DNA of 64,000 nt from a virus. Its lineage: Duplodnaviria > Heunggongvirae > Uroviricota > Caudoviricetes > Herelleviridae. How positions within the stretch are numbered: the first letter of the stretch is position 1; every line of letters begins with the position of its first letter. Below are positions 1 to 44,727 of the stretch, in pieces. Position numbers and translations under genes: made by a program. The DNA lies in the IMG/VR virus record IMGVR_UViG_3300020128_000040; one strand, 5' to 3'. Under the pieces are notes generated by a model that saw only the letters and a program-made list of their open reading frames with translations, had not been told where the DNA came from and searched no databases.

Positions 1-2018
1 AGGAAGGCCACCTGCTCCCCGCGGGCCAGGCACTCGTCCACGTAGGGGCGGACGATCGAGTGCATGTAGGCGGACAGGTCGGTGCGGAACTTCGTGATCT
101 GGCGGTACTCCCGGTAGTCCAGGCGCACCTTCTCGGTGAACTCCTTGGCCGTGACCGCCGCCAGGGAGTCCGCCTGGAGCTGGATCTGGGCGAACTGGTT
201 CGCGTCGATGTTGCTCAGGTGGACGTTGGCGAAGTCCAGGATGGCCTGGTTGGAGCGGTAGTTCGTGGTCAGCTGGTAGGTCGCGAAGACCCCGGAGGAC
301 TCCAACGCGTTCAGCGCCTTGGGGTTCGACGCCCGGAACTCGTACAGAGTCTGGGACGCGTCGCCCACGATGAGCAGGTTCTCCTTGTGCTTGGCCACGT
401 ACTTCAGCGCGTAGATGAACTCGAAGATCGAGTTGTCCTGCACCTCGTCGATGATGAGGTACCGGCTCGACACGTGCGGCGGCTCGGCCATGGTGTCGAT
501 CATCTGGTAGGCCAGGATGATCTCCAGCTCCAGGCAGGTCTGCCCGATGCGGTCGAGGATCTCCAGCACCTGCGGCTGGTAGTGCTCCACGAACGCGTTG
601 AGCGCGGTGGTCGAGCCCGGCAGCTTCTTGTCCATCTCCAGCAGCCGACGGCGGAAGGCCTTGGCCAGGTCGTCCATCGGGTAGAAGATGTCGAGGCTGT
701 TGAGGATCGTGTCCACGCTCGACAGGTCGTGCCGCGGGTGGTTCAGGGAGTAGATGTCGTGAATCATGCGCGCGATGGTCATGGACCCCACGCGTGGGTT
801 CTTGTCCTTGATGTTGTCGGCTGCCGCGTTGGTGAACGACAGCACGGTGATCTCGGACGGGTCGACCCCGGCCGCCTCCAGGTACGCGATGCGCGCCAGG
901 ATGACGGTGGACTTGCCGGTCCCGGCCCCGGCCTGCACCAGCGTCAGCGGCTCGTCCGTCGTGATGGCGGCCCGCTGCTGGGTGGAGAAGTGCGCGGGGA
1001 GCGCCGACGCCGCCTGCGCGTTCACAGGTGGCGACGGCAGCTGGGACTTGAAGGAGCTCAGCTCCTCCAGGGTGTGGCTCATCAGCAGGTTCAAGTTCTG
1101 CTTGGACAGGGTCGTGGCGATGTTCGGCGGGCAGACCGCGTTGATCGTCGTGTGGATCTGGCGGTACGCCTCCAGGGAGACGTTGTAGGTCTCCAGGTAG
1201 CGCAGCTGCGAGGCGAGCCGGTTCAGCGACTGCTCCGAGGGGGTGCCTGCGGCGAACACCTCGGTGATGTAGTCTCCGACGTGCTCGGCGATGTCGGTGC
1301 CCGCCCACTGCTCCGCCAGGCGGCAGACGCGGTCGTGCACGTCATAGTCGTCCATCCACGCGGCCAGGTCGTCGGCGTCGACGAACACCGGGTTGCCGGT
1401 GCCCGTGCGGGCCGAGGTCGCCGTTGCGATGAGGTCCTCCACGTCGTCCAGCGGGGCGTAGCTCCAGTCCAGGAGCACCACGCCCTCGCCCAGCGGCGCG
1501 TTGCGGCCGGAGGAGTGGTCCACGACGCGGGCCCGGGCGGGCGAGGAGCCCACCGGGAGCACGTAGAGCTCCATCCGGTACAGGATGCGCTTGGAGCGCG
1601 AGACCTTGTCGCCCCCGCCGTCCTCGGTGATGATGATCCCCTGCGGGGTCATGCCCAGGAAGGCGTCGAAGGCGAGCTTGGTCGCCGCCGAGGTGATGTG
1701 GAACAGGTCCTCGGGCACGGGGACCGGGATGGTCGCGCCGTAGGCGGGCGCCTCCTCCAGGGTGTACTGGGTCAGGGTGCCCAGCGGGATCGTGCTCGTG
1801 GTGATCGAGCTGCCCGTGGAGCGGGTCTTGGTCGCCACCGCGCCCACCGGCACCGAGTGGCGGCCCTCGCCGAGCGGGTAGCGCCCGGGCCGGGTGCTGC
1901 TGTTGAGCAGCCCCGTGGACTTGCCGGACCCGGTCAGGGAGCGGGAGAAGAACTTGGGGGTCTGCGCCTTGGTGGCGGCGGCAGCGAAGAGCGAGGGGTC
2001 GTCCATCTGGATCGGCAT
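1..2018 (-). CDS. UvrD/REP-family (SF1) helicase, 3' end runs off the window
   Basis: Manual translation from ATG at 2018 (AAAGGAAG RBS): QAGAGTGKST (motif I), TVLSFTNAAA (Ia), YLIIDEVQD (II), VGDASQTLYEFR (III), LTTNYRS (IV). Absent from the ORF track because it has no stop in the window. Confidence 0.92.
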   Translation of the reverse strand, partial: MPIQMDDPSLFAAAATKAQTPKFFSRSLTGSGKSTGLLNSSTRPGRYPLGEGRHSVPVGAVATKTRSTGSSITTSTIPLGTLTQYTLEEAPAYGATIPVPVPEDLFHITSAATKLAFDAFLGMTPQGIIITEDGGGDKVSRSKRILYRMELYVLPVGSSPARARVVDHSSGRNAPLGEGVVLLDWSYAPLDDVEDLIATATSARTGTGNPVFVDADDLAAWMDDYDVHDRVCRLAEQWAGTDIAEHVGDYITEVFAAGTPSEQSLNRLASQLRYLETYNVSLEAYRQIHTTINAVCPPNIATTLSKQNLNLLMSHTLEELSSFKSQLPSPPVNAQAASALPAHFSTQQRAAITTDEPLTLVQAGAGTGKSTVILARIAYLEAAGVDPSEITVLSFTNAAADNIKDKNPRVGSMTIARMIHDIYSLNHPRHDLSSVDTILNSLDIFYPMDDLAKAFRRRLLEMDKKLPGSTTALNAFVEHYQPQVLEILDRIGQTCLELEIILAYQMIDTMAEPPHVSSRYLIIDEVQDNSIFEFIYALKYVAKHKENLLIVGDASQTLYEFRASNPKALNALESSGVFATYQLTTNYRSNQAILDFANVHLSNIDANQFAQIQLQADSLAAVTAKEFTEKVRLDYREYRQITKFRTDLSAYMHSIVRPYVDECLARGEQVAF

Positions 2019-2118
2019 CGGGTCTTCCTTTCGTATTTATGCGGCTATGTGTCTGGCGGCGAGCCTCCCCCCGGGCCGGGGCCCAGGGGGGAGGAGCGCG
2101 GCATGGTCGGCCGACGGC

Positions 2119-4068
2119 TCAGGCCTGCGCCGGAACGGCTTCCTCCTCGTCGAGGGGGGTGGCCGCGGCGGCGGGGGCGGCGAGCAGCGGCTGCGCCGAG
2201 GGCGCCATCAGGGCGTCCTCGATCAGGCGGCGGGCCTCGTTCTCAGCGGGGCGGGCCCCCAGCTGGCGCTGGAAGGTCGCACGCACCGAGGCCTCCACGA
2301 TGTCGTCCGGCAGGGCCGGCGGCAGCACGGTGGCGTTGCGGGGCATCGTCGAGACGATGCGCTCGCGCTCGCGGGAGTACGCCGAGCGGAGGATCTCCGC
2401 GTAGACGGACTCGTCGATCGGGCGGAACGCCAGCAGGTGCATGAAGCGCCCCAGGAACTCCGGGTCGAAGGCCTGCTCCAGCGCCGAGGTCACCTGCTGC
2501 CGGTTGAACCGCGGGGGCTCACTGCCACCGGCGGAGAACCCCGCCGCCGGCTTGCCCCCGAGGGCCTCGCGGCCCGCGTTGGTGGTGGCGATGACGACGG
2601 CCTTGGAGAAGTCGACCACCTTGCCCGAGGCCATCCGCATCCAGCCCTCGTCGAGGGCGGTCAGCAGCAGCCGGTGGATGGTGCGGTCGGCCTTCTCGAT
2701 CTCGTCCAGGAGGATCACCCGGTACGGGTTGGACTCCAGGGTGTCGAACGGCAGCTCCTTGTTCGAGTCGCTGCCCACGTAGCCCGGCCCGGCCCCGATG
2801 AGCTTCGAGGCGTCGTGCGAGGTGTGGTACTCGCCCATGTTCAGCATGATCGGCTCCTGGCCCGTCAGGGCCCGGGCGATCACCTTCACGGCCTCGGTCT
2901 TGCCGACCCCGGAGGGACCGGCGAACATCCAGGTCATCGGGCGGCGGCGCGGGAACACCTCGAGGGCGTCACGGCGCATGGCGACCATGACCTCCTCCAG
3001 CGCCTCGTCCTGGCCCTTGATGCACAGCAGCGCGTCGCGGGCGGCGGCCTCGTCGAACGGGACCTTCGTGGGGATGCCCGTGGCCAGGCGCAGGGCGACG
3101 GCGTGGGCCTTCTCCTTCGTCAGGGGCACGGGGGTCATGGCCTTGAGCTGGGCGGCGTAGACCTGGTCACCGGCGGCCTCTGCCTCGGCGATCAGCCGGC
3201 GGTGGGTCACCACTGTGTCCCCCATGGCCCGGTCCATCAGGGTCAGGGCGCTGTCGGGGCGGTGCTCGGCGGCCCGGGAGTTCTCGTCCGCGATCCGGGC
3301 GATCTCCACCAGGGTGTGGTCGGCGACCGCCACAGCGTGGCTGTAGTGGGCGTGCAGCGAGGCCGAGGCCGAGCGCAGCACCTCCACCGTCTGCTCCCGG
3401 CTCAGCTCGTCCACGACCACGCGCGAGAACCGGCGCGCGAACGCCGGGTCGTCGTCGAGGTCGCGGGCCTCCTGGGCGGTGGTCGCGCCGATGAGGCGCA
3501 TGTCGCCGCGGGCCAGGGCCGGCTTGAGGATCTGGGCGATCTTGCGGTAGGTCTCGGAGTTCGACTGCAGCAGGTGGATCTCGTCGATGAACAGGACCGC
3601 GTTGTTCTTGCGGTCGGTGGCGAAGTCCACCACCGCCGCGACGCGGGACTCCAGCTCGCCCACGATGCCCGTCCCGGCCACGAGGCTGGACAGCGGCAGC
3701 TCCCAGACGGTGCTCTTGGCCATGGTCGGGGGCACCAGCGGCGAGCCGGTGGCGATGAGCCGGGCGATCTCCTCGACGATGCGGGTCTTGCCCACGCCGG
3801 CCGGGCCCACCAGCAGCGGGTTCGGCTTCGACTTGGAGATCAGCACCGACATGGTCAGCTGGATGAGCTGGTCGCGGAACATCGCGGGGTCGGCCGCCTT
3901 GAAGCGGTCGTTGTAGTCGATCATGATGTCGGTGACATCGTTGACCTGCTGGGCGGCTCCGCCCATCGACGGCAGCGGCGGCAGGCCCGGGCCACCAGGG
4001 CCGGCAGGCCCGCCGGGGCCACCAGGGCCGAGGTCGTCGTCGTCTGTAAAGTTGTGGAACGAGCTCAT
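2119..4068 (-). CDS. ClpA/ClpB-type double AAA+ ATPase lacking the usual N-domain
   Basis: NPLLVGPAGVGKT / LFIDEIH / GATT / FARRF, then GPSGVGKTE / KLIGAGPGYVG / LLDEIEKA / VDFSKAVVIATTN / PEFLGRF / GARP. Start MSSFHNF at 4068 follows a GAGAGGAG RBS. Confidence 0.92.
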   Translation of the reverse strand: MSSFHNFTDDDDLGPGGPGGPAGPGGPGLPPLPSMGGAAQQVNDVTDIMIDYNDRFKAADPAMFRDQLIQLTMSVLISKSKPNPLLVGPAGVGKTRIVEEIARLIATGSPLVPPTMAKSTVWELPLSSLVAGTGIVGELESRVAAVVDFATDRKNNAVLFIDEIHLLQSNSETYRKIAQILKPALARGDMRLIGATTAQEARDLDDDPAFARRFSRVVVDELSREQTVEVLRSASASLHAHYSHAVAVADHTLVEIARIADENSRAAEHRPDSALTLMDRAMGDTVVTHRRLIAEAEAAGDQVYAAQLKAMTPVPLTKEKAHAVALRLATGIPTKVPFDEAAARDALLCIKGQDEALEEVMVAMRRDALEVFPRRRPMTWMFAGPSGVGKTEAVKVIARALTGQEPIMLNMGEYHTSHDASKLIGAGPGYVGSDSNKELPFDTLESNPYRVILLDEIEKADRTIHRLLLTALDEGWMRMASGKVVDFSKAVVIATTNAGREALGGKPAAGFSAGGSEPPRFNRQQVTSALEQAFDPEFLGRFMHLLAFRPIDESVYAEILRSAYSRERERIVSTMPRNATVLPPALPDDIVEASVRATFQRQLGARPAENEARRLIEDALMAPSAQPLLAAPAAAATPLDEEEAVPAQA

Positions 4069-4154
4069 GACGAGGGCTCTCCTCTCGGATTTATGCCCTG
4101 GCAGGCCCGGCCCGCCCCGCGAGGGGGCAGGACGGGCGCCAGGGGGGGTCGGCT

Positions 4155-5846
4155 TCAGGCCGTGATCCCGATCAGCTTCTGGGGCACTGCCGGGTCGATG
4201 TGGGTCATGCTCTTGGAGAAGTTGCGGGCGAAGTGCACCATCCGGTCCCAGTCCATCCCCGAGCACGGGGCGTAGTACAGGTTCGGCGGGTGCGGCACCT
4301 TGTTGGTCGAGGGCGACCACTCGAAGTCCGTCAGGATCAGCGAGAAGCGCTCCCGCCGGCGGGCGGACATGTTGATGTACTCCCAGATCTGGCGGTAGTC
4401 GGTGCCGCCGGACACCTTGGGGATGCGGCGGAACTCGGCCCAGATGGCCGACACGGACTTGTTCGCCGTCTTCAGCAGCACCTCCTGGCTCATCATGTGC
4501 GAGAAGCTGTTGAAGTACAGGTCGACGTTCATCGACTTGGCCATCTTGATTAGCATCAGCACCGCGTCCTGGTAGTTCGCCTCGCTGATCGAGCCCGAGG
4601 TGTCCACGTAGACGTGGAGGTCGGGCAGGTACCTGGTCGAGGCGATCCGGCCGGGCCGGTTGAAGTCGTCCGGGTCGCGCCTGGACGCCTTCAGGAACGT
4701 GGTCTTCACCCGCTTCACGGCGTTGCGCGAGCGGTTGACCTCCTTCATGCGCTTCAGGGCGCGGATGACGCCCTTGGACAGGTCGACCTTGCTCGGGGCC
4801 TTCTTGCGGAAGCGCACCGACGCCGAGCGCCCCGAGGGGGCCAGCTTGTTCGACTGCGCGTTGGCGGCCGCGGCCGAGGCCTTGGCCATCGCCCGCGGGA
4901 GGGCCGTGAGCTTGGACAGCGCGCTGTTGGAGATCACGCGCACGCCCGAGGAGAGCGTGGCGTTGATGAGGCGCCACTCGTTGTCGATCTTCTTCGGCGA
5001 GGTGCGCGCGTGCGCCTCCACGTTCACCAGGACGACCGTCTTGGGGATGAACAGCTCCGCCATGTGGAACGGCATGATGCCGGCCGTGGGCTGCTGCGAC
5101 CCCGACGCCGAGCCGGCGACCGCCTGGTAGGCGGTCAGCAGGTGCACGAGCACCCGGGGGAAGGAGTACTCGTCGTTGCCGTCCGTCTCGTCCTTGCGCA
5201 GCACCAGGCCCTCGGTGAGGCCGGTCAGGCGCATCGCCAGGAACTTCGTCATGAGCGAGGTGGTCGAGGCGGGCAGCGGGGCGGCGGCCGACAGGGCGGT
5301 GAACTGCTGGGAGGCCCACTGCACGAAGTCGTCGAAGGCCGCGGCGCCCTGGAACCAGAAGCCCAGGGTCTCCGGGCTGTAGGTGTAGGCCAGCGAGGCG
5401 AAGAACTCGTCCTCCGAGCCGCCGGACAGCAGCGCCTTGGCCGTGGGGACCACGTCGGTCGCGGCGGTGTAGAGCACCGACGGGCCGGGGTGCGGCAGCG
5501 GGGTGCGCGAGGAGCGGGCGGCCTGCACCACGTAGGTGGCGCCAACCAGCAGTGGGGTGGTCTTGTCATAGCGGACGAGGCCCTGCTGCAGGACTGATTT
5601 CACGGCGTCCTCGGCGGCCATGTCGACGGTGTCGAGCATGGTGCGCAGGACCAGGGCGCGCAGGTCGTCCTGGTCGAGGGAGCGCCCCTTGGAGTCGGTC
5701 AGCGAGACCGGCCCCGCCCCCAGCGGGGTCATCAGGGGCTCGACGACGGCCTTCTCCAGCGCCGCCACCGGGTCGTACACGCCGGCGACCGGCAAGGGCT
5801 GGGTCGCGTCCAGCACGGCTGGGCGCTGGTTGCTCAGTGTGAGCAT
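4155..5846 (-). CDS. vWA (MIDAS) domain protein
   Basis: C-terminal LHVYVDTSGSIS (DxSxS), GGTD and ILTD. GAAGGAGG RBS before MLTLSNQ. Lies directly downstream of a MoxR ATPase. Confidence 0.85.
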   Translation of the reverse strand: MLTLSNQRPAVLDATQPLPVAGVYDPVAALEKAVVEPLMTPLGAGPVSLTDSKGRSLDQDDLRALVLRTMLDTVDMAAEDAVKSVLQQGLVRYDKTTPLLVGATYVVQAARSSRTPLPHPGPSVLYTAATDVVPTAKALLSGGSEDEFFASLAYTYSPETLGFWFQGAAAFDDFVQWASQQFTALSAAAPLPASTTSLMTKFLAMRLTGLTEGLVLRKDETDGNDEYSFPRVLVHLLTAYQAVAGSASGSQQPTAGIMPFHMAELFIPKTVVLVNVEAHARTSPKKIDNEWRLINATLSSGVRVISNSALSKLTALPRAMAKASAAAANAQSNKLAPSGRSASVRFRKKAPSKVDLSKGVIRALKRMKEVNRSRNAVKRVKTTFLKASRRDPDDFNRPGRIASTRYLPDLHVYVDTSGSISEANYQDAVLMLIKMAKSMNVDLYFNSFSHMMSQEVLLKTANKSVSAIWAEFRRIPKVSGGTDYRQIWEYINMSARRRERFSLILTDFEWSPSTNKVPHPPNLYYAPCSGMDWDRMVHFARNFSKSMTHIDPAVPQKLIGITA

Positions 5847-5932
5847 GGTCTGCCTCCTTCTGGGGCTCGATGTCATGGGCCGGGCGCGCCCGGCCCCAGG
5901 GGCGTCCCCACCCCCAGGGCCGAGCGGCTGGC

Positions 5933-7204
5933 TCAGGCGTTGATGCCGATCATGTTGGCGACCGGGCGGATGCGCTGCTCCACGATCGGGGCGTTGGTGT
6001 CCAGTGCCGCGCGGAGGTTGTCCTCGTTGAGGCCGCCGGAGGTCATCAGGCTGAGCAGCGTGGTGCCGTGGTCGGCCTCGAGCTGGTCGGTCTGCGCCAC
6101 GAGCTGGCGGATGATCGCGGTGTTGTCGGCCCCGTCGTAGATGGCGTAGACCAGCGCGCCGGACTTCTCACGGTCGTTCAGCTGGCTGATCAGGCCGTCC
6201 AGGGCGGAGTTGCTCCCCGCCGCGGCGAGGTCGTCCCAGCAGCCCGGGCGGGGCGCGGTGGCCTTGCGCGACTTGCCGCCGGCCGAGGCCTGGGCGAAGG
6301 ACGCGCCGATCTCCCCGATCAGCATTGTGGAGAAGGTGGTCAGACCGACGTGCGCCTCCACGATCTCGTGGAGCATCGTCACGCCGGTGCGGGCGCCGGC
6401 GTCCACCGGGGTCTGGAAGAGCTCCTTGAGCAGGTCGGGGTCGGCTTCGTCGAGGAAGTCGCTGATCGCCTCGATGGTGCGCGGCGTGGTCAGCTGCAGC
6501 ATCTCCTCGCCCGCGTCCATCAGGTCGGCGAACGTCGCGGTCTGCGAGTCGTCGTCGTCGTCGGAGCCGTCCACCGCGGTGAAGCTCAGCGGGGCGGACT
6601 TCTCGAACACCGACTCGGGGTTCTTCACCAGCACGGCGCGCACCCAGTCGTTCAGCGGCCGGGTGCCGTTGTCGCGGGAGTCGAGGTAGTCGATGACCGA
6701 CGGGGCGTCGGGCTCCACCTGGTACACGGCGAACCGGGACAGGCTGGCGTCGTCGAGAGCGACGACGTTGCCCTTGGTGTTGCCGGTCACCAGGATCTTC
6801 AGGTTGTCGGGGAGCACCTGGTCCCCGAGCTCGCGCTCGGTGGAGATGCTCAGCGCGCCCGAGGTCACGTCCGGGGTGGTCCGGTTGATCTCGTCCAGCA
6901 GGAGGTAGACGATGCTGCGCGGGTTGTCGTTGGCGTACTGCACGGCTGAGCGCACCTTGTGGTGCGCGAAGAACTTCTGCTCGAAGCTCTTCTTGTCCTC
7001 GGTCGGCACCAGGCGGGCGCCGGTCAGGTCGGCCTTGTCGGCCAGCTGGTTGACCTGCACGACGAAGCACTTGGAGTCGGTGGCGCGCGCCAGCGACTTG
7101 ACGATCGAGGTCTTGCCGATCCCGGGCTCGCCCGCCAGGAAGACGGTGTTGCCGGCGGCCATGTCGAGGCCGAGGATCTTGACGAAGGTGTCGGAGATCT
7201 TCAT
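5933..7204 (-). CDS. MoxR-family AAA+ ATPase
   Basis: GEPGIGKTS, LLLDEINR, TGN, SLSRF, TTPRT. Start MKISDTF at 7204. Confidence 0.88.
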   Translation of the reverse strand: MKISDTFVKILGLDMAAGNTVFLAGEPGIGKTSIVKSLARATDSKCFVVQVNQLADKADLTGARLVPTEDKKSFEQKFFAHHKVRSAVQYANDNPRSIVYLLLDEINRTTPDVTSGALSISTERELGDQVLPDNLKILVTGNTKGNVVALDDASLSRFAVYQVEPDAPSVIDYLDSRDNGTRPLNDWVRAVLVKNPESVFEKSAPLSFTAVDGSDDDDDSQTATFADLMDAGEEMLQLTTPRTIEAISDFLDEADPDLLKELFQTPVDAGARTGVTMLHEIVEAHVGLTTFSTMLIGEIGASFAQASAGGKSRKATAPRPGCWDDLAAAGSNSALDGLISQLNDREKSGALVYAIYDGADNTAIIRQLVAQTDQLEADHGTTLLSLMTSGGLNEDNLRAALDTNAPIVEQRIRPVANMIGINA

Positions 7205-7486
7205 GGTATTTGGGTTCCTTTGCTCGTTGCCGCCCACGGGCGGCGGATGCGGGTACCGCCCCCACGCCCCAAGCAGGGGCGCGGTCAGGAGGATGGGATG
7301 GAATGAGAGGGGCGGCACAGCCGCAAGAAGGCTGGAGGCACGGCGCCAGGGACGCCGTAGCCTGCCAGCCGCTTTCCCGGCTGCGCGCCAAGCGCAGCCA
7401 GCGCGGCGCCGGAGGCGCACCCCACGCTGACTAGCGCCCGCGACGGCGCCAGCCGGCGCGAGGGGCCGCCCGTCAGGGCGGTGTTT

Positions 7487-7957
7487 CTAGTCCTTGTCCT
7501 TACTCTCGCCCTTGACCGGCCCGCTCCCGGAGGGGGCGAGGCCGGAGACGTCGTGCTCGGAGCGGGGCACGGCCCTCACCTCGTAGGAGGTGGACGACGG
7601 CAGCGAGGCCACGAACCGGTCGAACGGCACGGGCTCGTAGGGCCGAGGGGGCTGGGGCCTGTGCTTGCGCACGCCGGCGGCGGCCAGGATCTCGAACTCC
7701 TTCAGCTCCTGCCTGTAGGAGCGCTCCAAGGAGGCGTGCTCGCGGCGGCGGCGGTCGTCGTCCTGCTTGTGCAGGCCCTCCAGCCGGGTGTTCAGCCGGG
7801 CGGCGCGGGAGGCGGCGTCATCAGGGGAGGCGAACCAGCCCTCGTCCTCGACGAGCTCCTCCTCGGTGACGGGGCGCCCGTCATGGCCCTCATGGGTGTG
7901 CAGCGAGACGATGACGTGCACGACGTCGTCCGTCCCGCGGGGGGATGATGCTGGCAT
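7487..7957 (-). CDS. hypothetical protein
   Basis: AAGGAGG RBS, GC3-rich codons, charged helical middle segment. Confidence 0.7.
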   Translation of the reverse strand: MPASSPRGTDDVVHVIVSLHTHEGHDGRPVTEEELVEDEGWFASPDDAASRAARLNTRLEGLHKQDDDRRRREHASLERSYRQELKEFEILAAAGVRKHRPQPPRPYEPVPFDRFVASLPSSTSYEVRAVPRSEHDVSGLAPSGSGPVKGESKDKD

Positions 7958-8031
7958 GGGTACCTCCTTGGTACTATGGATGCTGGGATACCAGCATAAA
8001 ACGAATAACGAACCGAGAGGGGGGCGGGCCC

Positions 8032-8673
8032 ATGATGGGACGCAACCACATCGTGGCGGGCCTCGGCCTGGCCGCACTGGGGGCCAGCGCGTTGAGGGGC
8101 GCGGCCCACCTGGAGGGGATGTCGTGGCAGGGGCGGCCCGAGTCGCTGCCCGGATGGGCCGGCGACCTCGTCGAGAAGGGGCTGGACGCCCTTGGCTCGG
8201 CGGCCTCATGGGCGCAGGGCTGGCTCGTGCCGACCAGCGAGGGCCCGTGGCACTGGGCGTACCTGGCGGCGGCCGCGGCGCTGTTCGTGCTGGGCACGCT
8301 GCTGCCCGACATCGACTCGGGCAAGTCGATCCTGGGCAGGCGGATGGCGCTGCCCCTGGGCCCCCACCGGGGCATCACGCACACCGACTGGGCGCTGGCG
8401 CTGCTGCTGGTGGCCTCCCTGCCGGGGCCGACCAGGGCGCTGGCCTTCCTGTGGTTGGGGGCCGTGACCCACTGCGAGCTGGACGGGTGGTCCACCGCGG
8501 GCAGGGCGAGGCTCTGGCCGCTCGGGCGGCACAGGACGATCATCGGGCCCGATGGCGAGCCCTGCGTGGTGCGCCCGAGCCCCCGGGCGCTGCACTACCG
8601 GACCGGCGGGACCGCCGAGCACGTGCTGGCCTGGGGGCTGGCAGCCCTCGGCGCCGCATCGCTCTTCTGGTAG
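8032..8673 (+). CDS. YdjM-like inner-membrane metal-dependent hydrolase
   Basis: MMGRNH, GTLLPDIDS, HRGITHT and THCELD motifs with several hydrophobic helices. Confidence 0.85.
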   Translation: MMGRNHIVAGLGLAALGASALRGAAHLEGMSWQGRPESLPGWAGDLVEKGLDALGSAASWAQGWLVPTSEGPWHWAYLAAAAALFVLGTLLPDIDSGKSILGRRMALPLGPHRGITHTDWALALLLVASLPGPTRALAFLWLGAVTHCELDGWSTAGRARLWPLGRHRTIIGPDGEPCVVRPSPRALHYRTGGTAEHVLAWGLAALGAASLFW

Positions 8674-8764
8674 GCCCGTCGCGCAGGACCCACGCCCCGG
8701 CGGCCACCAAGGCCACCAGGAGCAAGGCGCACAGCGAGATCGCGACGACCTGGGCGGCGCCCAT
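8540..8764 (-). CDS. possible small membrane protein
   Basis: ATG overlaps the primase stop (TGATG) and is followed by a hydrophobic run (VVAISLCALLLVALVAAGAWV). It overlaps the 3' end of the convergent hydrolase, so it is uncertain. Confidence 0.35.
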   Translation of the reverse strand: MGAAQVVAISLCALLLVALVAAGAWVLRDGPTRRAMRRRGLPAPRPARARRSRRSGSAAPGGSGAPRRARHRAR

Positions 8765-9771
8765 CAGCCCTCCTCCTCGGCCTCGGAGGCCAGGCGCTGG
8801 GCTATCAGGGCTGCGGCAGAGTTCAGCAGTAGCGGCATGCCGTTGCGGGCCTCGTCGTGCTTGGGGCGGTGCTCCAGCAGCGAGGCGGCCGCGTCGTAGA
8901 GCAGCCAGGTCAGGGCGCTCTCGTCGTATTCGTAGTCCGGCGTCACGGACTCTACGGCCTTGACGACATTGCGCAGGCGGTTGTAGAGCACGCCCAGCAC
9001 CGAGAACTCGAAGCGGGACATGTCCCCGCCGAAGTCGGCCGGGTCGCGCTTGTGGCCCCCGCGGGTGACGATCTCCAGGATCTGCTCGCGCCGCGGGACC
9101 TCGGGGCGCTCGGCGTCGATGTCGAGGTCGACCGTGAGCACCTCCACGGCCTGCGAGGCGACCTCCGCGTACAGGCCCTCCCACGAGGGCGCCGGGCCGG
9201 AGGCGGGTCCGAGCCCGGAGGTGTCGCCCACGGGTGAGCCGGTGAACGTGGCCCAGTGCTCGATGAGGACCTCCCACCAGCCCCGCGGGTGCTTGAGCAC
9301 CACCTTGGCGGCGGCCACAGGGAAGTCGTAGAAGTTCGTGGGTAGCGGCATCAGCAGGTGGAAGCCCTTGCCCGACATGGAGCGCTCGCGGTACAGGTCC
9401 CCGCCCATCGACAGCAGCCGGGCGGCCTCCCCCGGCGGGCAGGAGGACTCGATGTCGACCATGAGCACGCGGTCGACGGTGCCGCGCAGCCAGAACGCCC
9501 GGTTGGCGGCGCGCGGCAGGAAGTCGGTCAGCTCGTCGAGCGTGACGAGGCAGCGCTCGTCGGTGGCCCAGGCCCCGCGCACGGGGCCGTCGTGCTGGCA
9601 GCGCGACCCGCAGCCGTCCATCAGGTGGCGGATGTCGATCGGCCGCTTGGTCGAGTCCGAGACCGTCCAGCGGGGCTCTCGGCCGAGCTGGGCCACCGCG
9701 GGGTTGGTGTAGATCAAGGGGAGATCGGCTCGGGCGTCGTCCCCGGTGTAGTCGTCATGGGCGTTGGCCAC
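8764..9771 (-). CDS. AEP-superfamily primase/primase-polymerase-like protein
   Basis: hhhDhE motif (LMVDIES) and the ERSMSGKGFHLL (SxSGxGxH) motif. Confidence 0.75.
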   Translation of the reverse strand: MANAHDDYTGDDARADLPLIYTNPAVAQLGREPRWTVSDSTKRPIDIRHLMDGCGSRCQHDGPVRGAWATDERCLVTLDELTDFLPRAANRAFWLRGTVDRVLMVDIESSCPPGEAARLLSMGGDLYRERSMSGKGFHLLMPLPTNFYDFPVAAAKVVLKHPRGWWEVLIEHWATFTGSPVGDTSGLGPASGPAPSWEGLYAEVASQAVEVLTVDLDIDAERPEVPRREQILEIVTRGGHKRDPADFGGDMSRFEFSVLGVLYNRLRNVVKAVESVTPDYEYDESALTWLLYDAAASLLEHRPKHDEARNGMPLLLNSAAALIAQRLASEAEEEG

Positions 9772-9872: not shown

Positions 9873-10787
9873 TCAGCCGCCGAAGCCGATGCCCGGGCCG
9901 GCGGCGTCGCCCCACGGGTTGTCGCCCGCGTCGAACGCGGACTGGCCCTGAGGAGTGGCCTGCGCGGCCTGCTGGCGCTTGAGCTCGGCGAGCTGGCGCT
10001 CCAGGGCCTCCACGTCCGCCGAGGGGGCGGGCGCGGCCTGCTGCTGCACCGGCTGCTGGGCCGGGGCCGCCACAGGCGCGGGGGCGGCGAACGCGCCGGG
10101 GCCGGGGAGGGCGAAGCCCTCGTCGGTCACGACGGTGCCCTGCGGGAGGCCGCCGTCAGCGGCAGGGGCTCCGCCCTCAGGGGCCGCCGAGGGCGCGATG
10201 CGCTGGACCGGCCCGGAGATGACCACGCCGATCGCCGACAGCGCAGCGTTGTCCACGCCGCCGCCGCCGTAGTAGCGGGGCGCCTCGTTGAGGATGACCT
10301 GCTGCAGGCCGAGGCCCTTGTTGGCGTAGTCGCCCTGGGTGAAGGTGGTGAGCACCAGCGTCACGTCGAGCCCGGAGTCGAGGTCCTGGGGGAGCACGAG
10401 CTGGCGGTGGCTGCCGCTGCCGTCCCGCTCGTCGGCCGGGATCGGCTCGAAGACCGGGGGCAGGTTCGGCGACTTGTCGTCGATCGAGAAGCCGCGCTTG
10501 CCGGCGTTGTCGCCCTTCTTCACCTCGTAGATCTTGCTGTTGACGAAGATCTCCTCGGGGGTCGGGTTCTGCGCGTCCACGGGCACGACCGCCGCGTCGA
10601 TCAGCGAGATCGTGGTGTGCGGCTTGGTGGTCGGGTACTTCGAGCCCCGGGCCCGGGCCGCGGCGATCGACTTGACGAGTTCCTCGCCGTCGATGTGGCG
10701 GGTCAGGCGGGAGAACGAGATGCGCCCGCGCAGGAAGATGGTCTGGTTCTCGCGCAGCTGGTCCGCGCGTGGGACGGTGACAGTCAT
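9873..10787 (-). CDS. putative phage-type ssDNA-binding protein (gp2.5/DUF2815-like)
   Basis: Beta-rich N-terminal region ending NKGLGLQQVIL, an Ala/Pro/Gln linker and an acidic-aromatic tail (FDAGDNPWGD). Sits in a replication gene context. Confidence 0.55.
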   Translation of the reverse strand: MTVTVPRADQLRENQTIFLRGRISFSRLTRHIDGEELVKSIAAARARGSKYPTTKPHTTISLIDAAVVPVDAQNPTPEEIFVNSKIYEVKKGDNAGKRGFSIDDKSPNLPPVFEPIPADERDGSGSHRQLVLPQDLDSGLDVTLVLTTFTQGDYANKGLGLQQVILNEAPRYYGGGGVDNAALSAIGVVISGPVQRIAPSAAPEGGAPAADGGLPQGTVVTDEGFALPGPGAFAAPAPVAAPAQQPVQQQAAPAPSADVEALERQLAELKRQQAAQATPQGQSAFDAGDNPWGDAAGPGIGFGG

Positions 10788-11559: not shown

Positions 11560-13365
11560 TCACAGCGGGCTGATGCCGAGGTCCCCCAGGACGTCCTCGA
11601 CGTCCTGGTAGTAGGCCGAGTCGTCGTGGCGCACGGCCTCCAGGAGGCCGTCCTGGACGCGCTTTTTGCGCTCCAGGGCCCACGGGAGGGTGGCGTCCTT
11701 GGTGCCCTTGGCGACCATCTGCATGACCTGGACGTGCTGCCCCTGGCCGATGCGGATCAGGCGGCCGTTGAGCTGCTGGTAGTGCTCCAGGGAGTCGGGC
11801 AGGGTGTACCACACCAGGGTGTGGCCGCCCGCCTGCAGGTTCAGGCCCGGCCCAGCGCTGCGCGGGTGCAGCAGCATGACCGGGATGGACTTGTCGTTCC
11901 ACGCCTTGACCATGGCGCGGGAGCCGTCGAACTTGACGACGTCGACCCCGTCCCTGGCCAGGGCCGCGGTGATGCGGTCGATCTCCGAGACGAAGCGGTA
12001 GGCCACGAGCACGTTGCTCGAGGCGTTGCCCACCAGGTGGCGGAGCATCTCCTCCTTCTCCTGGTGGATGACCGCGTAGCCGCCAGCGTCGTCGGTGTAC
12101 ATCGTCCCCGAGGCGAACTGCACGAGCTTGCCGTGCAGGATGCCCGCGTTGTCGGCCGTGATGACCAGGCGCGAGGGGTCGTTGGGGTGCGGGGAGGCGA
12201 GCTCCAGCACGCGCTCCTTGACGAACTCTTTGTAGGCGTCCATGACGTCGCGCGGCAGGGTCACGTTGACCGTGTCGATGGAGAACGGCGGCATCGGGAT
12301 CGAGGTGTTCTCCGCGCTCATGACGAACGGGGCGACCAGCTCGTAGATCTGCTTGTCCGCGCCGGGCAGCAGCTCCCACTTCACCGGCCGGCCGTCGACG
12401 TGCATCGTCGGGGTGAAGAAGCGGGCGCGGTACTGGGTGTAGGTGCCCAGGGTCTTGCCCTGGTCGATCAGGTAGATCTGCGCCCACAGGTCGAGCATCG
12501 ACTGCGGCGACGGCGTCCCGGTCAGCTCGACCAGCCGGTCGATCGCCGGGCGGACCCGCTTGAGGGCCTTGAACCGCTCCGAGGAGGGGTTCTTCATGTT
12601 CTGGGACTCGTCGATGATGACCGTCGGGAACGGCCACTGCACGGCGTCGCGGTACTTCTTCCTCCCATTGGCGTAGACGCCGTCCTCGACCCGCACGACG
12701 GGCATGCGGTCCACCAGGCCGGCCTGGCACTCGCGGCAGCCCTTGCCGCCGCAATGGCGGCAGTCGACGGGGCGCACGGCGATGGTGCCGGCGTCCTTCA
12801 GCTCCTTGATGCGGCGCATCACCTCCGCTTTCGTCAAGGGCTTGCCCTTGGGCGGCTGGGGGCCGGCCGCGGCGCGGACGGCCTCGACCAGCTCGGCCTG
12901 CGGCACGGGGCCGGAGGCCACCAGCGGGTCGAGCACGCTCAGGTGGCGGGGCTCCAGGGGCGAGGGCGGCGGGCCGACGGGCACCACGAGGTGCTCGGGG
13001 CGGGAGGGCTGCACCAGCAGCTCCTGGTTGATGAAGTACATGGTGGGCGGGTCGGTGAACACCTCGTCGAAGGCGCGCAGGCGCGCCTCCTTGGACAGCG
13101 GCACGTCGTCGGCGTCCACCAGCAGGCTCTTGGTGCGCAGCGGGAAGCCCCACTTGTCGATCTCGTCGAGCCAGGTCGAGCGGGCGATCGCCAGCGGGGC
13201 GACCACCAGGATGTGCCCGGCCGGGCGCACCTGCGCCAGCGCGGCCAGGGTGGACAGGGTCTTGGCCCCGCCGATGCCCAGGAACACCCCGCAGTGGGGG
13301 CGCGAGACGATGAAGTCGCGCGCCATCTGCTGGTGCGGCATCAGCTCCGGTACCTTGAAGGCCAT
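11560..13365 (-). CDS. phage-type SNF2/SF2 helicase
   Basis: LMPHQ, GIGGAKT, ILVVAPL, VIIDESQ, LTGTP, DLWAQ, GLNLQ and QLNGRLIRIGQ motifs. Confidence 0.9.
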   Translation of the reverse strand: MAFKVPELMPHQQMARDFIVSRPHCGVFLGIGGAKTLSTLAALAQVRPAGHILVVAPLAIARSTWLDEIDKWGFPLRTKSLLVDADDVPLSKEARLRAFDEVFTDPPTMYFINQELLVQPSRPEHLVVPVGPPPSPLEPRHLSVLDPLVASGPVPQAELVEAVRAAAGPQPPKGKPLTKAEVMRRIKELKDAGTIAVRPVDCRHCGGKGCRECQAGLVDRMPVVRVEDGVYANGRKKYRDAVQWPFPTVIIDESQNMKNPSSERFKALKRVRPAIDRLVELTGTPSPQSMLDLWAQIYLIDQGKTLGTYTQYRARFFTPTMHVDGRPVKWELLPGADKQIYELVAPFVMSAENTSIPMPPFSIDTVNVTLPRDVMDAYKEFVKERVLELASPHPNDPSRLVITADNAGILHGKLVQFASGTMYTDDAGGYAVIHQEKEEMLRHLVGNASSNVLVAYRFVSEIDRITAALARDGVDVVKFDGSRAMVKAWNDKSIPVMLLHPRSAGPGLNLQAGGHTLVWYTLPDSLEHYQQLNGRLIRIGQGQHVQVMQMVAKGTKDATLPWALERKKRVQDGLLEAVRHDDSAYYQDVEDVLGDLGISPL

Positions 13366-13748: not shown

Positions 13749-16700
13749 CTACGCGGCGCCGTTCATCCAGTTCTTCTCATAGGTGTCGGCGAGTAGCTCG
13801 ACGTACACCCCGAGGTCCAGGCAGCCGAGGAGGTCGCGCAGGCGCGCCTCCCCCATGCAGTGCAGGTCCTCGTTCACGACCAGCGCCGACCACGAGGGGT
13901 CGATGCTGTTGATGCGGCGCACCGCGACGTCCTGGTCCACGGGCAGGAGCGTGAAGCCCTCGTCCGAGGCCTGCGAGACACGGCGGGTGAAGCCGTTCGC
14001 CTCCAGGATCTGCATCGCCACCGGGTCGTCGGAGACGGCCTGCAGGCCGTTCTTCTGCCGGTTCAGGCGCGTGGCCGGGTTGATGACCCACGCCCCGGCA
14101 GAGCGCAGCGACACCGCCCCCGGCTTGCCGGGGTGCACGTAGAACACGCGGTTGTGGTGCTGCAGCGGCCGGGCGTTCGTGATGCCCTCGTCGTCCGCCC
14201 CCGCCTGGGGGACGGGGTCAGAGGCGAACGGGATCGTGATCTTGCCGTTCGACGACGCGATCATGTTCTGGAACAGGCGCGCGGCCAGCACGCCGTCCTC
14301 CAGGTCCCGGGCCTCGAGCATCAGCCGCAGGGCCAGCTCGCGGTCCAGTGGCTCCTCCAGGGAGACCGGCCCCTTGCGCCCCTTGGGGGTGTAGCCCCCG
14401 GCGATGTAGCGCAGGTACCGGGCCAGCGCCCAGTCCAGCACCGCGGGGTGCGCCAGCGCCTTGTCGGGGCGGGGCCCCTCGTAGCACGCGAGCGTGCCGC
14501 CTGAGGCGTCGACGATCCTCGCCTCCCACGGCTCCTGGCCGTCGGCCGGCGGGCGCATCTCCAGCCGGTTGTTGGAGTCCTTGGACACGATGACCAGGGG
14601 CTCCGGCTCGATCTCGACGTTGATCAGCGCCTGTTGCTCGGCGAGCACGCGGTTGTTGGTCTCCTCGTCCAGGACGGAGTAGAGGCCGTCGGTGTTCGTG
14701 GAGATGATCCGCCCACCCGCGAGGGTCTGGGCCTGCCCGATGCGCCAGGAGAACAGCTGCCCGATGATCCGCATCGAGATGATCTGGTTGTTGACGCGGA
14801 TCGGCGAGTTGCCGAACGTCGTGTCACCAGCGCCCGAGGCGGAGTTCAGGATCAGCTTGGTCCCGTTGCGGAGCACCTTGAGGCGCTCGACCTCGTCGCG
14901 CGAGAGCGACGGGTCCTTCATCATGACGCCGTACCTGTCCTTGTCGGCCAGGATCTTGGCGTAGCGGTCCTCCCCGAGGTCGGGGTTGTAGAACGCGCTC
15001 ATGTTGCGCAGCATGTTCGGGTAGTACGAGGTGAAGTCCTCGTGGATCGCAGCGCCCGCGGAGGTGTGGGTGTACTTCGCCTTTAGCTTGTTCGACCTGT
15101 CGGGGGACGGCTCAAACAGCTCGGGCCGCTTGGGGCCCGGCTTCCAGCCCACGCCCGGGAACCGCGACTCGACCTCGGCCACGTCGGCCGGGTCGGGGTC
15201 GGGGCCCAGGGCCGTGATGGCCTCCGAGCGCTCCTTGAGCGCTTTGATGGTGCTCTTGGAGGTCAGCACGTCCTTGTAGGGAACGATGGCGGTCGAGCCG
15301 TCGGGCATCGGTACCTCCATCTCCTTGGCCAGGCGGATCGTGAGCGGGTCGGGCGACACGGCCCTCACCGCCTCGATGAACGCCTGCCACTGGTGCCACT
15401 CGGCCGAGTCGGCCTCGTAGGCGGCCACATCCGCCTCAGCGCCGTGGATGCCCCCGGTCGAGAACGTGGCGAAGCACGTGCTTGGGGAGCCGTCGGCGTT
15501 GAAGTAGGGGATGTTGTTCGGCCGCTTGGGCACGTCCTTGAGGACGTGCGGCGGGTGCTCCGCCAGGCTGTAGGTGTCCGCGTACTCCTGCGAGTCGTTG
15601 AAGTTCAGACCCTCGATCGACCTGTAGTACTGGTAGACCTCGTCGAACTGGGCCCGGGCCGAGGGGTCGGCCACGTGCTCGTAGAAGAAGTCGCGGCAGT
15701 CCTCCAGGACGTTGCGGCGCTCCACGCCGCGCTCGGCGGCCACCTGCTCGGAGGGGTAGAGGAACGACACCGCGGGGATGTCGGTCAGCTTCCCGTAGGG
15801 GCTGAGGATCTTGCCCACGAACTTCGCGGACGTCGAGTCCGGCGCCAAGCGGTCGCGGCGCACGGCCTGCGGGCGCACGTCGGGGCGGTGGGTCCCGCGC
15901 ACCGGCTGGTACACGGTCTCCGGGTACTCGTCCAGCAGGCCCTTCTTCAGGTCGAAGCCCGACGCGTAGGTCGGGTGCTGGGCCAGCTGGGCCAGGCCTA
16001 CGACGTCAGAGACGTTGTAGGCCAGCAGCTCGTAGAGGTCCTGCGCCGAGGCGATCCGCGCGTTGTGCGAGCCGAGGCGGTCCGACTCCAGGATCTGGCG
16101 GCCCTGGCCGCCCAGGAGGCGCTTGAGGCCGATGCGGCGCTGCACCTCGTTGAGCATGGCGATGTCGATGTGGCGTCCCGAGTGCAGGAACGCCTGGCGG
16201 ATCTTGTTCGCCGAGGAGTTCCAGCCCTTCGACCCGGCGACGGAGCCGTCGGTCAGGTAGCGGGGCATGTACTCCTTGAAGGCCGGGGAGAACAGCTGGT
16301 CGTTGTGCCGGCGCATGCCGGCGGCGGTCACCGGCCGGAATAACGCGGGGGCGTCCTGGGGGCGGCCGTCATGGACGGCCCTGGCCAGGTCGACGAAGGC
16401 CTCCATGAAGTACACCGCGAGCATCGTGGTGTCGTAGTTGTAGGAGTTGTACCCGGCCAGGTAGGGGTGCTGGCCCAGCGGGTCGTACCCGGGGTCGGTG
16501 TCGCACACCGGGCGCAGCCACGGGCCGTAGCTGGAGGGCGAGCCCGGGTCGTTGACCGAGTCGGCGTCCGACAGGCCGAAGACCTGGGCCAGGCGCTGGT
16601 TACCGCGCCACTCGCGCAGGTCGTAGGCGACCATGTGCCGCGGGGCGCCGGGGCGGTCCTGGTAGGACGGGTTGCGCTCGGCCACCACGTCCGCCAGCAC

Positions 16701-16868
16701 GGCGATGTCCACCTCGATCGAGGGGTCGTCCAGGAGGTAGAAGACCTCCAGCACGTTGGTGCGCGGGTTGTAGGAGCACAGCGTGAAGGCGTTCTGCAGG
16801 CTCTCGATGTCGTAGTAGGTGAACAGCGCGTTGCGGCTGGTCACCGGGGTCTTCCCTGGGCTCGTCAC
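13749..16868 (-). CDS. family B DNA polymerase with 3'-5' exonuclease (NTDG-type)
   Basis: ExoI YDIES, ExoII GYNSYNYD, ExoIII YNVSD; TGGIHG; motif A DFTSYYP; motif B KLILNSASG; motif C STNTDG. GTG start at 16868 has an AGAGGAG RBS and a GTGA overlap with the upstream stop. Confidence 0.88.
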   Translation of the reverse strand: MTSPGKTPVTSRNALFTYYDIESLQNAFTLCSYNPRTNVLEVFYLLDDPSIEVDIAVLADVVAERNPSYQDRPGAPRHMVAYDLREWRGNQRLAQVFGLSDADSVNDPGSPSSYGPWLRPVCDTDPGYDPLGQHPYLAGYNSYNYDTTMLAVYFMEAFVDLARAVHDGRPQDAPALFRPVTAAGMRRHNDQLFSPAFKEYMPRYLTDGSVAGSKGWNSSANKIRQAFLHSGRHIDIAMLNEVQRRIGLKRLLGGQGRQILESDRLGSHNARIASAQDLYELLAYNVSDVVGLAQLAQHPTYASGFDLKKGLLDEYPETVYQPVRGTHRPDVRPQAVRRDRLAPDSTSAKFVGKILSPYGKLTDIPAVSFLYPSEQVAAERGVERRNVLEDCRDFFYEHVADPSARAQFDEVYQYYRSIEGLNFNDSQEYADTYSLAEHPPHVLKDVPKRPNNIPYFNADGSPSTCFATFSTGGIHGAEADVAAYEADSAEWHQWQAFIEAVRAVSPDPLTIRLAKEMEVPMPDGSTAIVPYKDVLTSKSTIKALKERSEAITALGPDPDPADVAEVESRFPGVGWKPGPKRPELFEPSPDRSNKLKAKYTHTSAGAAIHEDFTSYYPNMLRNMSAFYNPDLGEDRYAKILADKDRYGVMMKDPSLSRDEVERLKVLRNGTKLILNSASGAGDTTFGNSPIRVNNQIISMRIIGQLFSWRIGQAQTLAGGRIISTNTDGLYSVLDEETNNRVLAEQQALINVEIEPEPLVIVSKDSNNRLEMRPPADGQEPWEARIVDASGGTLACYEGPRPDKALAHPAVLDWALARYLRYIAGGYTPKGRKGPVSLEEPLDRELALRLMLEARDLEDGVLAARLFQNMIASSNGKITIPFASDPVPQAGADDEGITNARPLQHHNRVFYVHPGKPGAVSLRSAGAWVINPATRLNRQKNGLQAVSDDPVAMQILEANGFTRRVSQASDEGFTLLPVDQDVAVRRINSIDPSWSALVVNEDLHCMGEARLRDLLGCLDLGVYVELLADTYEKNWMNGAA

Positions 16869-17164
16869 GGGGAGCTCCTCTCTTCGGGGGCCCTCGTCCA
16901 GGGGCCGAACAATGCTGTCACGGGCGCCCATGAGGCGCCCCTCGTCTCGCCGGAGGCGTCGGTCCAGGAGCCGTCGGCCCCCAGGACCCAGGGGTCGCCC
17001 TCGCGGTCGAGCCACACCCCCGGCTCGGAGGGGACCCCGCCGTCGGCGACCCGCTGGCGCAGGGACTCGTCCAGCCGGTCGCGGCCGGGGCCGTCGAGGC
17101 CCTCGGGGTAGGCCTCCTCGGGCAGGAGCCTGGCGGCCGCCGGGCCTGTGTCTGTCTGGGCCAT
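16865..17164 (-). CDS. hypothetical protein, coupled to the polymerase
   Basis: AAGGAGG RBS, 99 aa, Trp-rich (WLDREGDPWVLGADGSW), GTGA overlap with the polymerase start. Confidence 0.7.
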   Translation of the reverse strand: MAQTDTGPAAARLLPEEAYPEGLDGPGRDRLDESLRQRVADGGVPSEPGVWLDREGDPWVLGADGSWTDASGETRGASWAPVTALFGPWTRAPEERSSP

Positions 17165-17181: not shown

Positions 17182-18876
17182 TCATGCGAACGGGTTCTCC
17201 CACGGCTTGGGCGGCTCGGGCTGCACCAGCGCCGCCACGGCGGCGGCAGGGGCGTGCTGCTGGGGCTGGGGGGCCCCGACGTAGCGCTGCAGCCCCCGGT
17301 ACATGCTCGCCGTCGCCGGCTGGCACAGCTTCGCCGGGTCGTTGCCCGTGTAGGAGGGCGACTGCCACGACTTCAGGTCGTAGGCCATGATGAGCAGCTC
17401 CGGGGCGTCCATCTTCGAGCCGGTCCGCACCTGGGCGGAGCGGTCGGCGCAGTACCACCCCGAGGAGGGGTCGACCACGGACACGAGGTCCTTGATGAAC
17501 ACGTTGCGCCCCACCGGGGAGCCCGAGGGGTTGGACCTGGCGAACCAGGACTTGTACAGGTCGTACAGGAACGCGAAAGGGAGCAGGTCCCACACGAAGT
17601 CCTCGTGGAGCTCCTCCCAGAACGCGCGGATCGGGTCGTTGAACTCCTTGTACTCGGCCAGCACGCGCCCGACGGCGTCGGGCTCGGACAGCGAGTAGTA
17701 GTCCATGTGCAGGACGCGCTTGAGCACGTAGCGCAGGACATCGGGGTGCGAGACGTACTCGTCCTTGATGTAGCGGCGCTCGTGGCCGGTGAAGCACTTC
17801 TCGAACGGCACGAACAGCTGCCGGCGGTAGAAGCTCTCGGAGCGGTCCTTGATCCGCGGGAACTCGTTCAGGCACTGGACCATGAAGCCCCAGAACTGGT
17901 ACGAGATCGGCGTCTTGTACTTGCGGTTGATCATCAGCACGTCGTTCGTGATGATGGCCTTGAGGTTGGCGGCCTTGTCGATGAACAGGCCGACGTCGTT
18001 TTCGTCCACGATGATCGCCGAGGCGCGGGTCAGGGGCTCCAGCATGAAGTCCTTGCCCATGTCCGCCAGCGGCAGCGAGGTGTGGGCCCCGGGGCCGCAC
18101 AGGTTGCGCATCAGCGCGACCAGGGTCCCCTTGCCGTTGTTGCCCCGCTCGGAGTAGAACCACGCCGACTTGTTCCAGCGCACGTGGGGGCGGATCACCG
18201 CGCCCACGATCTGCCAGAGCAGCTCGACGACCTCGGGGTCGTCGGACAGCGTCCCCATCCACTCCTCGACCTCCCAGGTGTCGCCGTCCGGCGTGTCGAA
18301 CACCGGGGAGACGGCGGCAGGGTCGTAGTCGACCGAGCTCTTGGACAGGAAGACGAGGTCCGGGGAGAACGGGAGCAGCTTCTTGGCCGCGTAGTCGAAG
18401 ACCCCGTTGCCCACGGCGATCAGGTCGCGGTCGGCGCAGCGGTGGACCCGGGGCGCCTGCTCGCGCAGCACGGCGAAGACCTCCTTGGCCCCGTTGATCG
18501 TCAGCTCACGGTTGTAGGCGCGGGCGATCGAGCGGATCTCCTCCTCGGCCGTCAGGTAGACGCCCTGGGAGGGGCCGGAGGCCGAGTAGACGGCCAGCAG
18601 GTCGTAGTCGGGGTCGGTGTTCTTGCCCGAGGGCGCGATCTTCACCACCCGGTGCAGGTGCACCAGGACCTGGGCCACCTGGGAGAAGGTGAGGGTCTGC
18701 AGCAGCGTGATGCGGTGCTTCGGGTCCCTGCCGGCGTTCTCGATCACGAACTCGGCGTTCGTCAGATCGAGCAGCTCGTTCTCGACCTGCTTGGCCGGCG
18801 GCGGGGACGAGGGGTCGAGCCCCTCGAGGTAGGAGGTTGTCACCTCCTGCACTATCTGGTTCTGTGGCTTTGCCAT
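17182..18876 (-). CDS. SF3 (D5/P4-type) replicative helicase
   Basis: D5_N-like DLIAVGNGVFD...FSPDLVFLSK; Walker A ERGNNGKGT; Walker B IIVDEND; motif C CLNEFP; FYRRQLFVPF. Confidence 0.88.
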   Translation of the reverse strand: MAKPQNQIVQEVTTSYLEGLDPSSPPPAKQVENELLDLTNAEFVIENAGRDPKHRITLLQTLTFSQVAQVLVHLHRVVKIAPSGKNTDPDYDLLAVYSASGPSQGVYLTAEEEIRSIARAYNRELTINGAKEVFAVLREQAPRVHRCADRDLIAVGNGVFDYAAKKLLPFSPDLVFLSKSSVDYDPAAVSPVFDTPDGDTWEVEEWMGTLSDDPEVVELLWQIVGAVIRPHVRWNKSAWFYSERGNNGKGTLVALMRNLCGPGAHTSLPLADMGKDFMLEPLTRASAIIVDENDVGLFIDKAANLKAIITNDVLMINRKYKTPISYQFWGFMVQCLNEFPRIKDRSESFYRRQLFVPFEKCFTGHERRYIKDEYVSHPDVLRYVLKRVLHMDYYSLSEPDAVGRVLAEYKEFNDPIRAFWEELHEDFVWDLLPFAFLYDLYKSWFARSNPSGSPVGRNVFIKDLVSVVDPSSGWYCADRSAQVRTGSKMDAPELLIMAYDLKSWQSPSYTGNDPAKLCQPATASMYRGLQRYVGAPQPQQHAPAAAVAALVQPEPPKPWENPFA

Positions 18877-32688: not shown

Positions 32689-32913
32689 TCAGGCGGCCTT
32701 GCGGCCCTGCCGGAGCATCGCCTTGCGCTCATTCGGTGTGGTGCCGCCCCACACGCCGTGCTGCTCGTTGTTCTTCAGGGCGTACGCTAGGCACTCCTCG
32801 ATCACGTCGCAGCCGCGGCACAGGGTCTTGGCGGTCTTGGCTTCCTCGGTGGTCTCCGGGAAGAACAGGTGCGGGTCGACGCTCGGGCACAGGGCCTCCT
32901 CCTGCCAGCTCAT
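32689..32913 (-). CDS. whiB: WhiB-family Fe-S transcription regulator
   Basis: W...ALC...DP.LFFP, AK..CRGC.V..ECL.YAL, GVWGG.T..ER: all four Cys present. Confidence 0.97.
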   Translation of the reverse strand: MSWQEEALCPSVDPHLFFPETTEEAKTAKTLCRGCDVIEECLAYALKNNEQHGVWGGTTPNERKAMLRQGRKAA

Positions 32914-43789: not shown

Positions 43790-43877
43790 CACCGGCCCGG
43801 GGGCCGGGGAGGGCCGCGACGCCCGCCCCGGTCCCCTTCGGCCTACCCCCGACGAGCGACTACGAGGAGATGGAGAC

Positions 43878-44726: not shown

Positions 44727-44727
44727 C

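Follow-up and report, generated by a model that had tools for sequence, protein, structure and literature searches.

In characterised MoxR/vWA pairs, the vWA protein selects the client and the MoxR ATPase remodels it. Such pairs have been summarised previously (PMC7911831), and CbbQO, NorQD and RavA-ViaA serve as a model for adaptor-guided remodelling via the MIDAS. However, these three systems are chromosomal, have metabolic clients and are linked to neither a Clp ATPase nor a helicase. Here we describe a locus in which a MoxR-vWA pair is followed by a compact Clp ATPase and a UvrD-like helicase, in a 64,000-nt stretch of DNA (hereafter the window; positions are 1-based and refer to the whole stretch).

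Two further groups of described systems resemble the locus. The MoxR plus metallopeptidase-vWA pair (DUF2201/DUF2201_N; PHROG 1297/1314; the jumbo-phage pair of PMC7824862) shows the same MoxR-then-vWA adjacency, a homologous vWA half and an intact MIDAS. In the present locus, by contrast, the N-domain of the vWA protein has neither an HExxH motif nor detectable DUF2201_N homology, Clp and UvrD always follow, and the carriers are conjugative elements and probably not phages. The MoxR-vWA ternary conflict systems, characterised by turnover of their effectors and a varying architecture (Kaur et al. 2020, PMC7159879), have the same MoxR-vWA core and are common in Actinomycetota, whereas our locus lacks a third component and variable effector fusions, and its vWA domain belongs to another clade. 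Every component of the block has known counterparts. In the literature that could be searched we met neither their fixed combination nor this vWA variant, nor any description of the block, although Iyer and Aravind 2012 may mention it among NCgl1702 elements.

Gene organisation of the locus

The four genes are co-oriented on the minus strand and separated by spacers with GC hairpins (Table 1), which confirms the arrangement described in an earlier sequence-only reading of this DNA. The interval assigned there to a four-gene block, 2119-7204, covers only the MoxR, vWA and Clp genes, with uvrD just outside, from position 2018. The full length of UvrD was read from ~142 kb contigs of several samples, on which the locus recurs in identical form. 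Hairpins were scored as z for folding versus shuffled sequence; the MoxR-vWA and vWA-Clp spacers fold much more stably than their shuffled versions, the Clp-UvrD spacer less markedly so. All three spacers were examined and have no U-tract; as GC hairpins without U-tracts, they may be mRNA-stabilising elements or actinobacterial-type terminators. Stacked GC hairpins (z -2.7 and -3.4) also lie upstream of moxR at 7205-7470 (-). The window has only two copies of the heptamer CATAAAT (0.12 expected), at 2035-2041 and 4089-4095 (-), just upstream of uvrD and clp; the heptamer was rejected as a conserved signal before these genes because it is not kept in distant loci.

Table 1. Features of the block and of the adjoining replication array in the window
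Feature	Position	Strand	Description
UvrD/PcrA-like SF1 helicase	1..2018	-	N-terminal extension ~340 aa; gene cut by window edge; full length 991 aa
Clp-UvrD spacer	2019..2118	-	100 bp; weaker GC hairpin, z -1.3
Class I Clp/Hsp100 ATPase, compact	2119..4068	-	649 aa; acidic G/P-rich short tail replaces N-domain; vestigial M-domain; ClpP-docking xGF loop
vWA-Clp spacer	4069..4154	-	86 bp; GC hairpin, z -3.2
vWA adaptor	4155..5846	-	563 aa; 330-aa N-domain without clear fold match; DUF2201-clade vWA domain, MIDAS intact
MoxR-vWA spacer	5847..5932	-	86 bp; GC hairpin, z -2.8, then ribosome-binding site
MoxR-type AAA+ ATPase	5933..7204	-	423 aa; family-specific C-terminal domain; acidic loop near residues 212-220
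Archaeo-eukaryotic primase (AEP)	8764..9771	-	PICI/NrS-1-like motifs invariant; weak PDB primase and PHROG primase matches
Gene preceding primase, SSB-like by inference only	9873..10787	-	in 48/50 relatives
SNF2-like helicase	11560..13365	-	profile match
Family-B DNA polymerase (PolB)	13749..16931	-	proofreading motifs; co-occurs with the block
D5/P4-type SF3 helicase	17182..18852	-	–

Conservation of the block within a replication array

The block was compared among 50 relatives, that is, genomes or records chosen via the vWA protein from Actinomycetota, Kurthia and gut MAGs; the counts include close kin and reflect shared descent, not independent events. The order MoxR-vWA-Clp-UvrD is kept in all 50 relatives on the same contig and strand, within about 7-13 kb and down to ~30% identity. 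MoxR-vWA-Clp forms a tight core, the vWA gene adjoining moxR in every relative. Small genes are often inserted ahead of uvrD, and the Clp-UvrD joint is the loosest of the block, where a gap of 0.3-4 kb, or as many as three small genes, is common. Gene order is the single line of evidence for the claim that the module is wired to a helicase.

Upstream of moxR, the primase gene is found in 49/50 relatives and the SSB-like gene in 48/50 (Table 1), usually abutting in Actinomycetota. Further upstream, 49 of the 50 have a PolB whose motifs are intact. The conserved unit is larger than four genes: the primase and SSB-like genes also belong to it. For the product of the SSB-like gene no family match was found, and its SSB identity is unconfirmed by those searches. 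In the reverse direction, 20 of 22 records found via PolB carry the vWA gene, including all 11 with terminal repeats; the two others are linear, of 79 and 33 kb. In PLSDB, the same three of 72,556 plasmids carry vWA, a full-length MoxR orthologue and PolB. Order conservation and PolB linkage thus hold among the homolog-bearing genomes, and the earlier proposal of a dedicated protein-remodelling module on a mobile element is supported, the module being conserved and linked to a PolB replicon. Host housekeeping genes were rejected as an explanation of the block, since the hosts keep separate ClpC/ClpB and the block occurs in only 3/151 genomes of one family.

The nearest named relatives of the window locus are from Microbacteriaceae, at about 62% identity. 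The PolB of the window has NTDG as its third motif, gives no Pfam match and is unannotated in RefSeq plasmids. A small hypothetical gene, an inverted YdjM-like gene and an inverted LysM gene (7487-8673 and 10955-11491) break up the conserved array in the window. In Arthrobacter sp. Hiyo8 (G040/L070), the MoxR, primase and PolB matches are fragmented, by decay or sequencing error, and one 229,674-bp circle (G072) has seven D5-type primase-helicase matches on a single element.

Structural features of the MoxR and vWA proteins

The MoxR protein matches AAA_5 (E 1e-11), with AAA_5/AAA_3 above cut-off. Its Walker A and Walker B motifs, N142, R157 and P241-R-T are invariant among 31 relatives, and the presence of sensor 1, arginine finger and sensor 2 beside both Walker motifs in these 31 sequences identifies it as an AAA+ ATPase.

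The vWA fold spans residues ~405-563 (Z 10.2, rmsd 3.8, 141 aligned). Across 140 sequences that reach down to 25% identity, the MIDAS (DxSxS, T, D) has D415, S417, S419 and D507 invariant and T482 conserved at 90% or more. The C-terminal half is of the DUF2201 clade, with an RxxRR arm (hhalign 94%). Taken by their motifs, all motors in the block look catalytically intact, together with the invariant MIDAS. The N-domain folds confidently (pLDDT 96) and gave no clear structural match against PDB (best Z 4.4) or BFVD, which does not by itself prove a new fold; hhalign found no homology to DUF2201_N, and the HExxH zinc-peptidase motif is absent from the consensus. Several zincin-like chains are among the weak structural matches to residues ~100-325 (Z 2.4-3.8). 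With the HExxH motif missing and the zincin-like matches weak, the N-domain may only tentatively be read as a dead peptidase.

The family comprises 320 representatives at 50% clustering, 73 loci in GTDB species genomes and 10-27 IMG/VR records. All full-length members are ~535-615 aa with a single architecture, and members in this size range have no fused effector. Atlas searches with the N-domains of vWA and UvrD gave leads only. Co-folding of vWA with Mg and Clp(1-345) scored 0.00, which carries no weight either way.

Structural features of the Clp and UvrD proteins

Like the ClpA/ClpC/ClpE-ClpP proteases, the Clp protein has two AAA modules with intact Walker motifs, a GYVG second pore loop and a ClpP-docking loop; its xGF loop aligns with that of ClpC, and 90% or more of the aligned rows keep G510-F511. 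It differs from them in the vestigial M-domain, in the first pore-loop tyrosine, which is lost in most members, in being element-encoded and in having no N-domain. The last point bears out the earlier description as an N-domain-less ClpA/B-type ATPase: no Clp_N match was found, a double Clp_N domain is absent (score far below cut-off), and a short acidic tail takes the place of the domain. Identity to the host Clp proteins is 30-33%. The long M-domain or dedicated N-domain and the missing ClpP loop of the ClpB, ClpG and ClpK disaggregases were not found here.

Element-borne clpP genes are present in the gut clade (G045:137122, G046:7964, G063:39832, G037:C8:116142 and G036:C84:1366), lying between PolB and the block in G045 and G037, whereas most actinobacterial members have none. 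The retained ClpP loop, the vestigial M-domain and the clpP carried by some elements point to an unfoldase for proteolysis rather than a disaggregase, and the earlier label of disaggregase is not supported. The conjugation region of the Gordonia plasmid pGKT2 encodes a second compact Clp-type ATPase of 588 aa (L095:15351-17117).

The helicase matches UvrD-helicase (E 7e-25); SF1A helicase motifs I-IV and the C-terminal domain are present and intact. Weak matches to helicase IV/HelD were also obtained. In the window's own element, a PemK-family toxin gene lies shortly downstream of uvrD (L090:18128-18817).

The carriers are large conjugative elements

Judged by gene content, the carriers are large conjugative elements of Gram-positive bacteria, ~100-250 kb, circular or integrated in chromosomes; one copy of the block is on a 639 kb plasmid. 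A MobL relaxase was found in 5/5 and a coupling protein in 4/5 elements tested. A phage origin was judged improbable; one terminase family was searched for and is absent from 5/5 elements. INPHARED holds no match to the vWA protein. Bifidobacterium pMP7017 was rejected as a carrier, being absent from the plasmid matches to vWA and PolB. About 30 IMG/VR "virus" records (L077-L086, L126-L152) are such elements, and the five tested carry MobL without the searched terminase family.

A large ORF matching RNA polymerase beta-type profiles was found in 12 of 15 related elements (among L095, G046-G065 and W01-W03). In pGKT2 it encodes a single-chain polymerase that combines beta- and beta'-type domains and is annotated as hypothetical (L095:25722-30185). 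Most of the elements encode such a fused beta/beta' RNA polymerase, of ~1,900 residues. The tra genes and the polymerase gene lie tens of kb from the block, the latter often on the opposite strand.

Other genes of the window include an actin-like partition protein, a sortase and a 1,953-aa antigen I/II-type adhesin (42545-51847, +), as well as an RNA-repair module, namely a kinase-phosphoesterase-RNA ligase fusion beside tRNA-Arg(CCT) (58844-61277, -). A RecJ-like exonuclease (22436-24424, -) and a RarA/MgsA ATPase (29837-31132, -) are shared with pGKT2. By eye, 32689-32913 (-) looks like a WhiB-type regulator and 56313-56786 (-) like a DUF4065/PanA-type antitoxin.

Corynebacterium glutamicum CGP3 is probably a relative of these elements, on the basis of annotation and of profile matches in the C. 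glutamicum control genome to MobL, the coupling protein, this PolB and this vWA; the protein searches for block relatives returned no C. glutamicum protein. NCgl1702 itself presumably lies within CGP3. NCgl1702-like mobile elements (named in PMC7824862) are distinguished by a fused RNA polymerase, which they have in common with the 12 relatives above. CGP3 (cg1890-cg2071) contains cg1980, whose annotation is MoxR-like ATPase and which increases on exposure to ciprofloxacin (PMC5055667); it further encodes an Lsr2-type silencer (PMC5137423) and an actin-like protein (PMC5539076). CGP3 is described as a cryptic prophage, unlike the conjugative-element reading given here. An Lsr2 gene between the SNF2 and SSB-like genes of two relatives (L002:15085-15456 and L003:14892-15275) recalls CgpS of CGP3.

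Proposed function and alternatives

We tentatively propose, with confidence a little short of even, that the block is a remodel-and-degrade module for the private replisome of the element, with the element's own replication proteins as predicted clients; these are the best guess because the block sits in the primase-SSB-PolB array. A large conjugative element would bring its own replisome, and the block would be part of its backbone machinery. By analogy with CbbQO, NorQD and RavA-ViaA, the vWA protein would grip an acidic client residue via its metal site and the MoxR ring would pull the client loose; the N-domain-less Clp, acting like ClpA/C/X, would thread the freed protein into a host or element copy of ClpP, and UvrD would unwind or clear DNA. 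The likeliest clients would be proteins of the D5 helicase-primase-PolB complex, during loading, restart or disassembly. The Clp-ClpP arm might even replace the zinc peptidase usual in DUF2201-clade vWA proteins, lost here, though we suggest this tentatively. The replisome reading is weakened in that gene neighbourhood alone assigns the client, and the giant RNA polymerase and the T4SS of the same elements are equally possible clients. Also against it stand the second Clp of pGKT2, the missing clpP in most actinobacterial members and the first pore tyrosine, mostly lost.

Large enzyme complexes are the typical clients of MoxR/vWA pairs, and the block could instead assemble, activate or recycle the RNA polymerase; UvrD would then play a PcrA/HelD-like part where transcription complexes stall. 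The frequency of the beta-type ORF, the two domain types in the pGKT2 protein, and the long N-extension and helicase IV/HelD matches of UvrD argue for this reading, which we nevertheless hold to be unlikely, since the polymerase gene is distant and often on the other strand, and no polymerase was detected, albeit with a weak profile, in the complete block-bearing circles G045 and G072. A role in conjugation, with UvrD unwinding nicked DNA for the MobL relaxase and the ATPases unfolding the relaxase or assembling the mating apparatus, would suit the MobL and coupling-protein genes. Transfer of Gram-positive ICEs depends on a PcrA-type helicase. The block is located in the replication array, however, and the tra region of pGKT2 has a second SF1-like helicase domain protein beside its own Clp-type ATPase, so we regard this role as improbable.

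There is likewise only a small chance that the block helps the element, once transferred, to establish itself or take over the host, by degrading or remodelling proteins of the latter (defence complexes, nucleoid or replication factors). If it lacks the usual adaptor domains, a ClpP-coupled unfoldase can retarget host ClpP, as jumbo phages do with ClpP/ClpS (PMC7824862), and the surroundings of clp often contain inserted small variable genes; yet the strong cross-phylum conservation and fixed lengths are unlike host-targeting effectors. An anti-phage conflict system or a stand-alone heat-stress disaggregase cargo is very improbable, despite the MoxR-vWA cores of ternary conflict systems (PMC7159879), the generic GajB matches of UvrD and the ClpG/ClpK profile similarity. 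No third component (VMAP, iSTAND, beta-propeller or FtsH) was found beside the block, whose neighbours are the primase and Clp; six proteins searched for Gabija gave partial GajB matches and no GajA, PADLOC returned generic AAA and helicase matches only, and Clp retains its ClpP loop and scores far below the ClpG, ClpK and ClpB cut-offs. The fixed architecture, without a variable effector, and the presence in every member, not a patchy subset, argue against defence, and a conflict system in the usual sense, as raised earlier, is not supported.

Implications for MoxR/vWA pairs on mobile elements

To our knowledge, hardly any clients have been described for the MoxR/vWA pairs of mobile elements. 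The pair described here belongs to the invariant backbone of its elements, sits next to a private replisome and has few candidate clients. It is conceivable, though on the doubtful side, that a host-independent, two-stage protein control, in which MoxR-vWA extraction feeds an adaptor-less Clp-ClpP, is obligatory in an overlooked class of self-replicating and self-transcribing conjugative elements with CGP3 as a member, and that the Clp arm replaced a peptidase once fused to vWA. The short list of candidate clients and the culturable carriers (Gordonia pGKT2, Arthrobacter, Streptomyces and probably C. glutamicum CGP3) make the client question directly testable, and CGP3, if a relative, would permit direct genetics. 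Altogether, the vWA protein marks a cross-phylum class of elements that is filed in databases as viruses or untyped plasmids.
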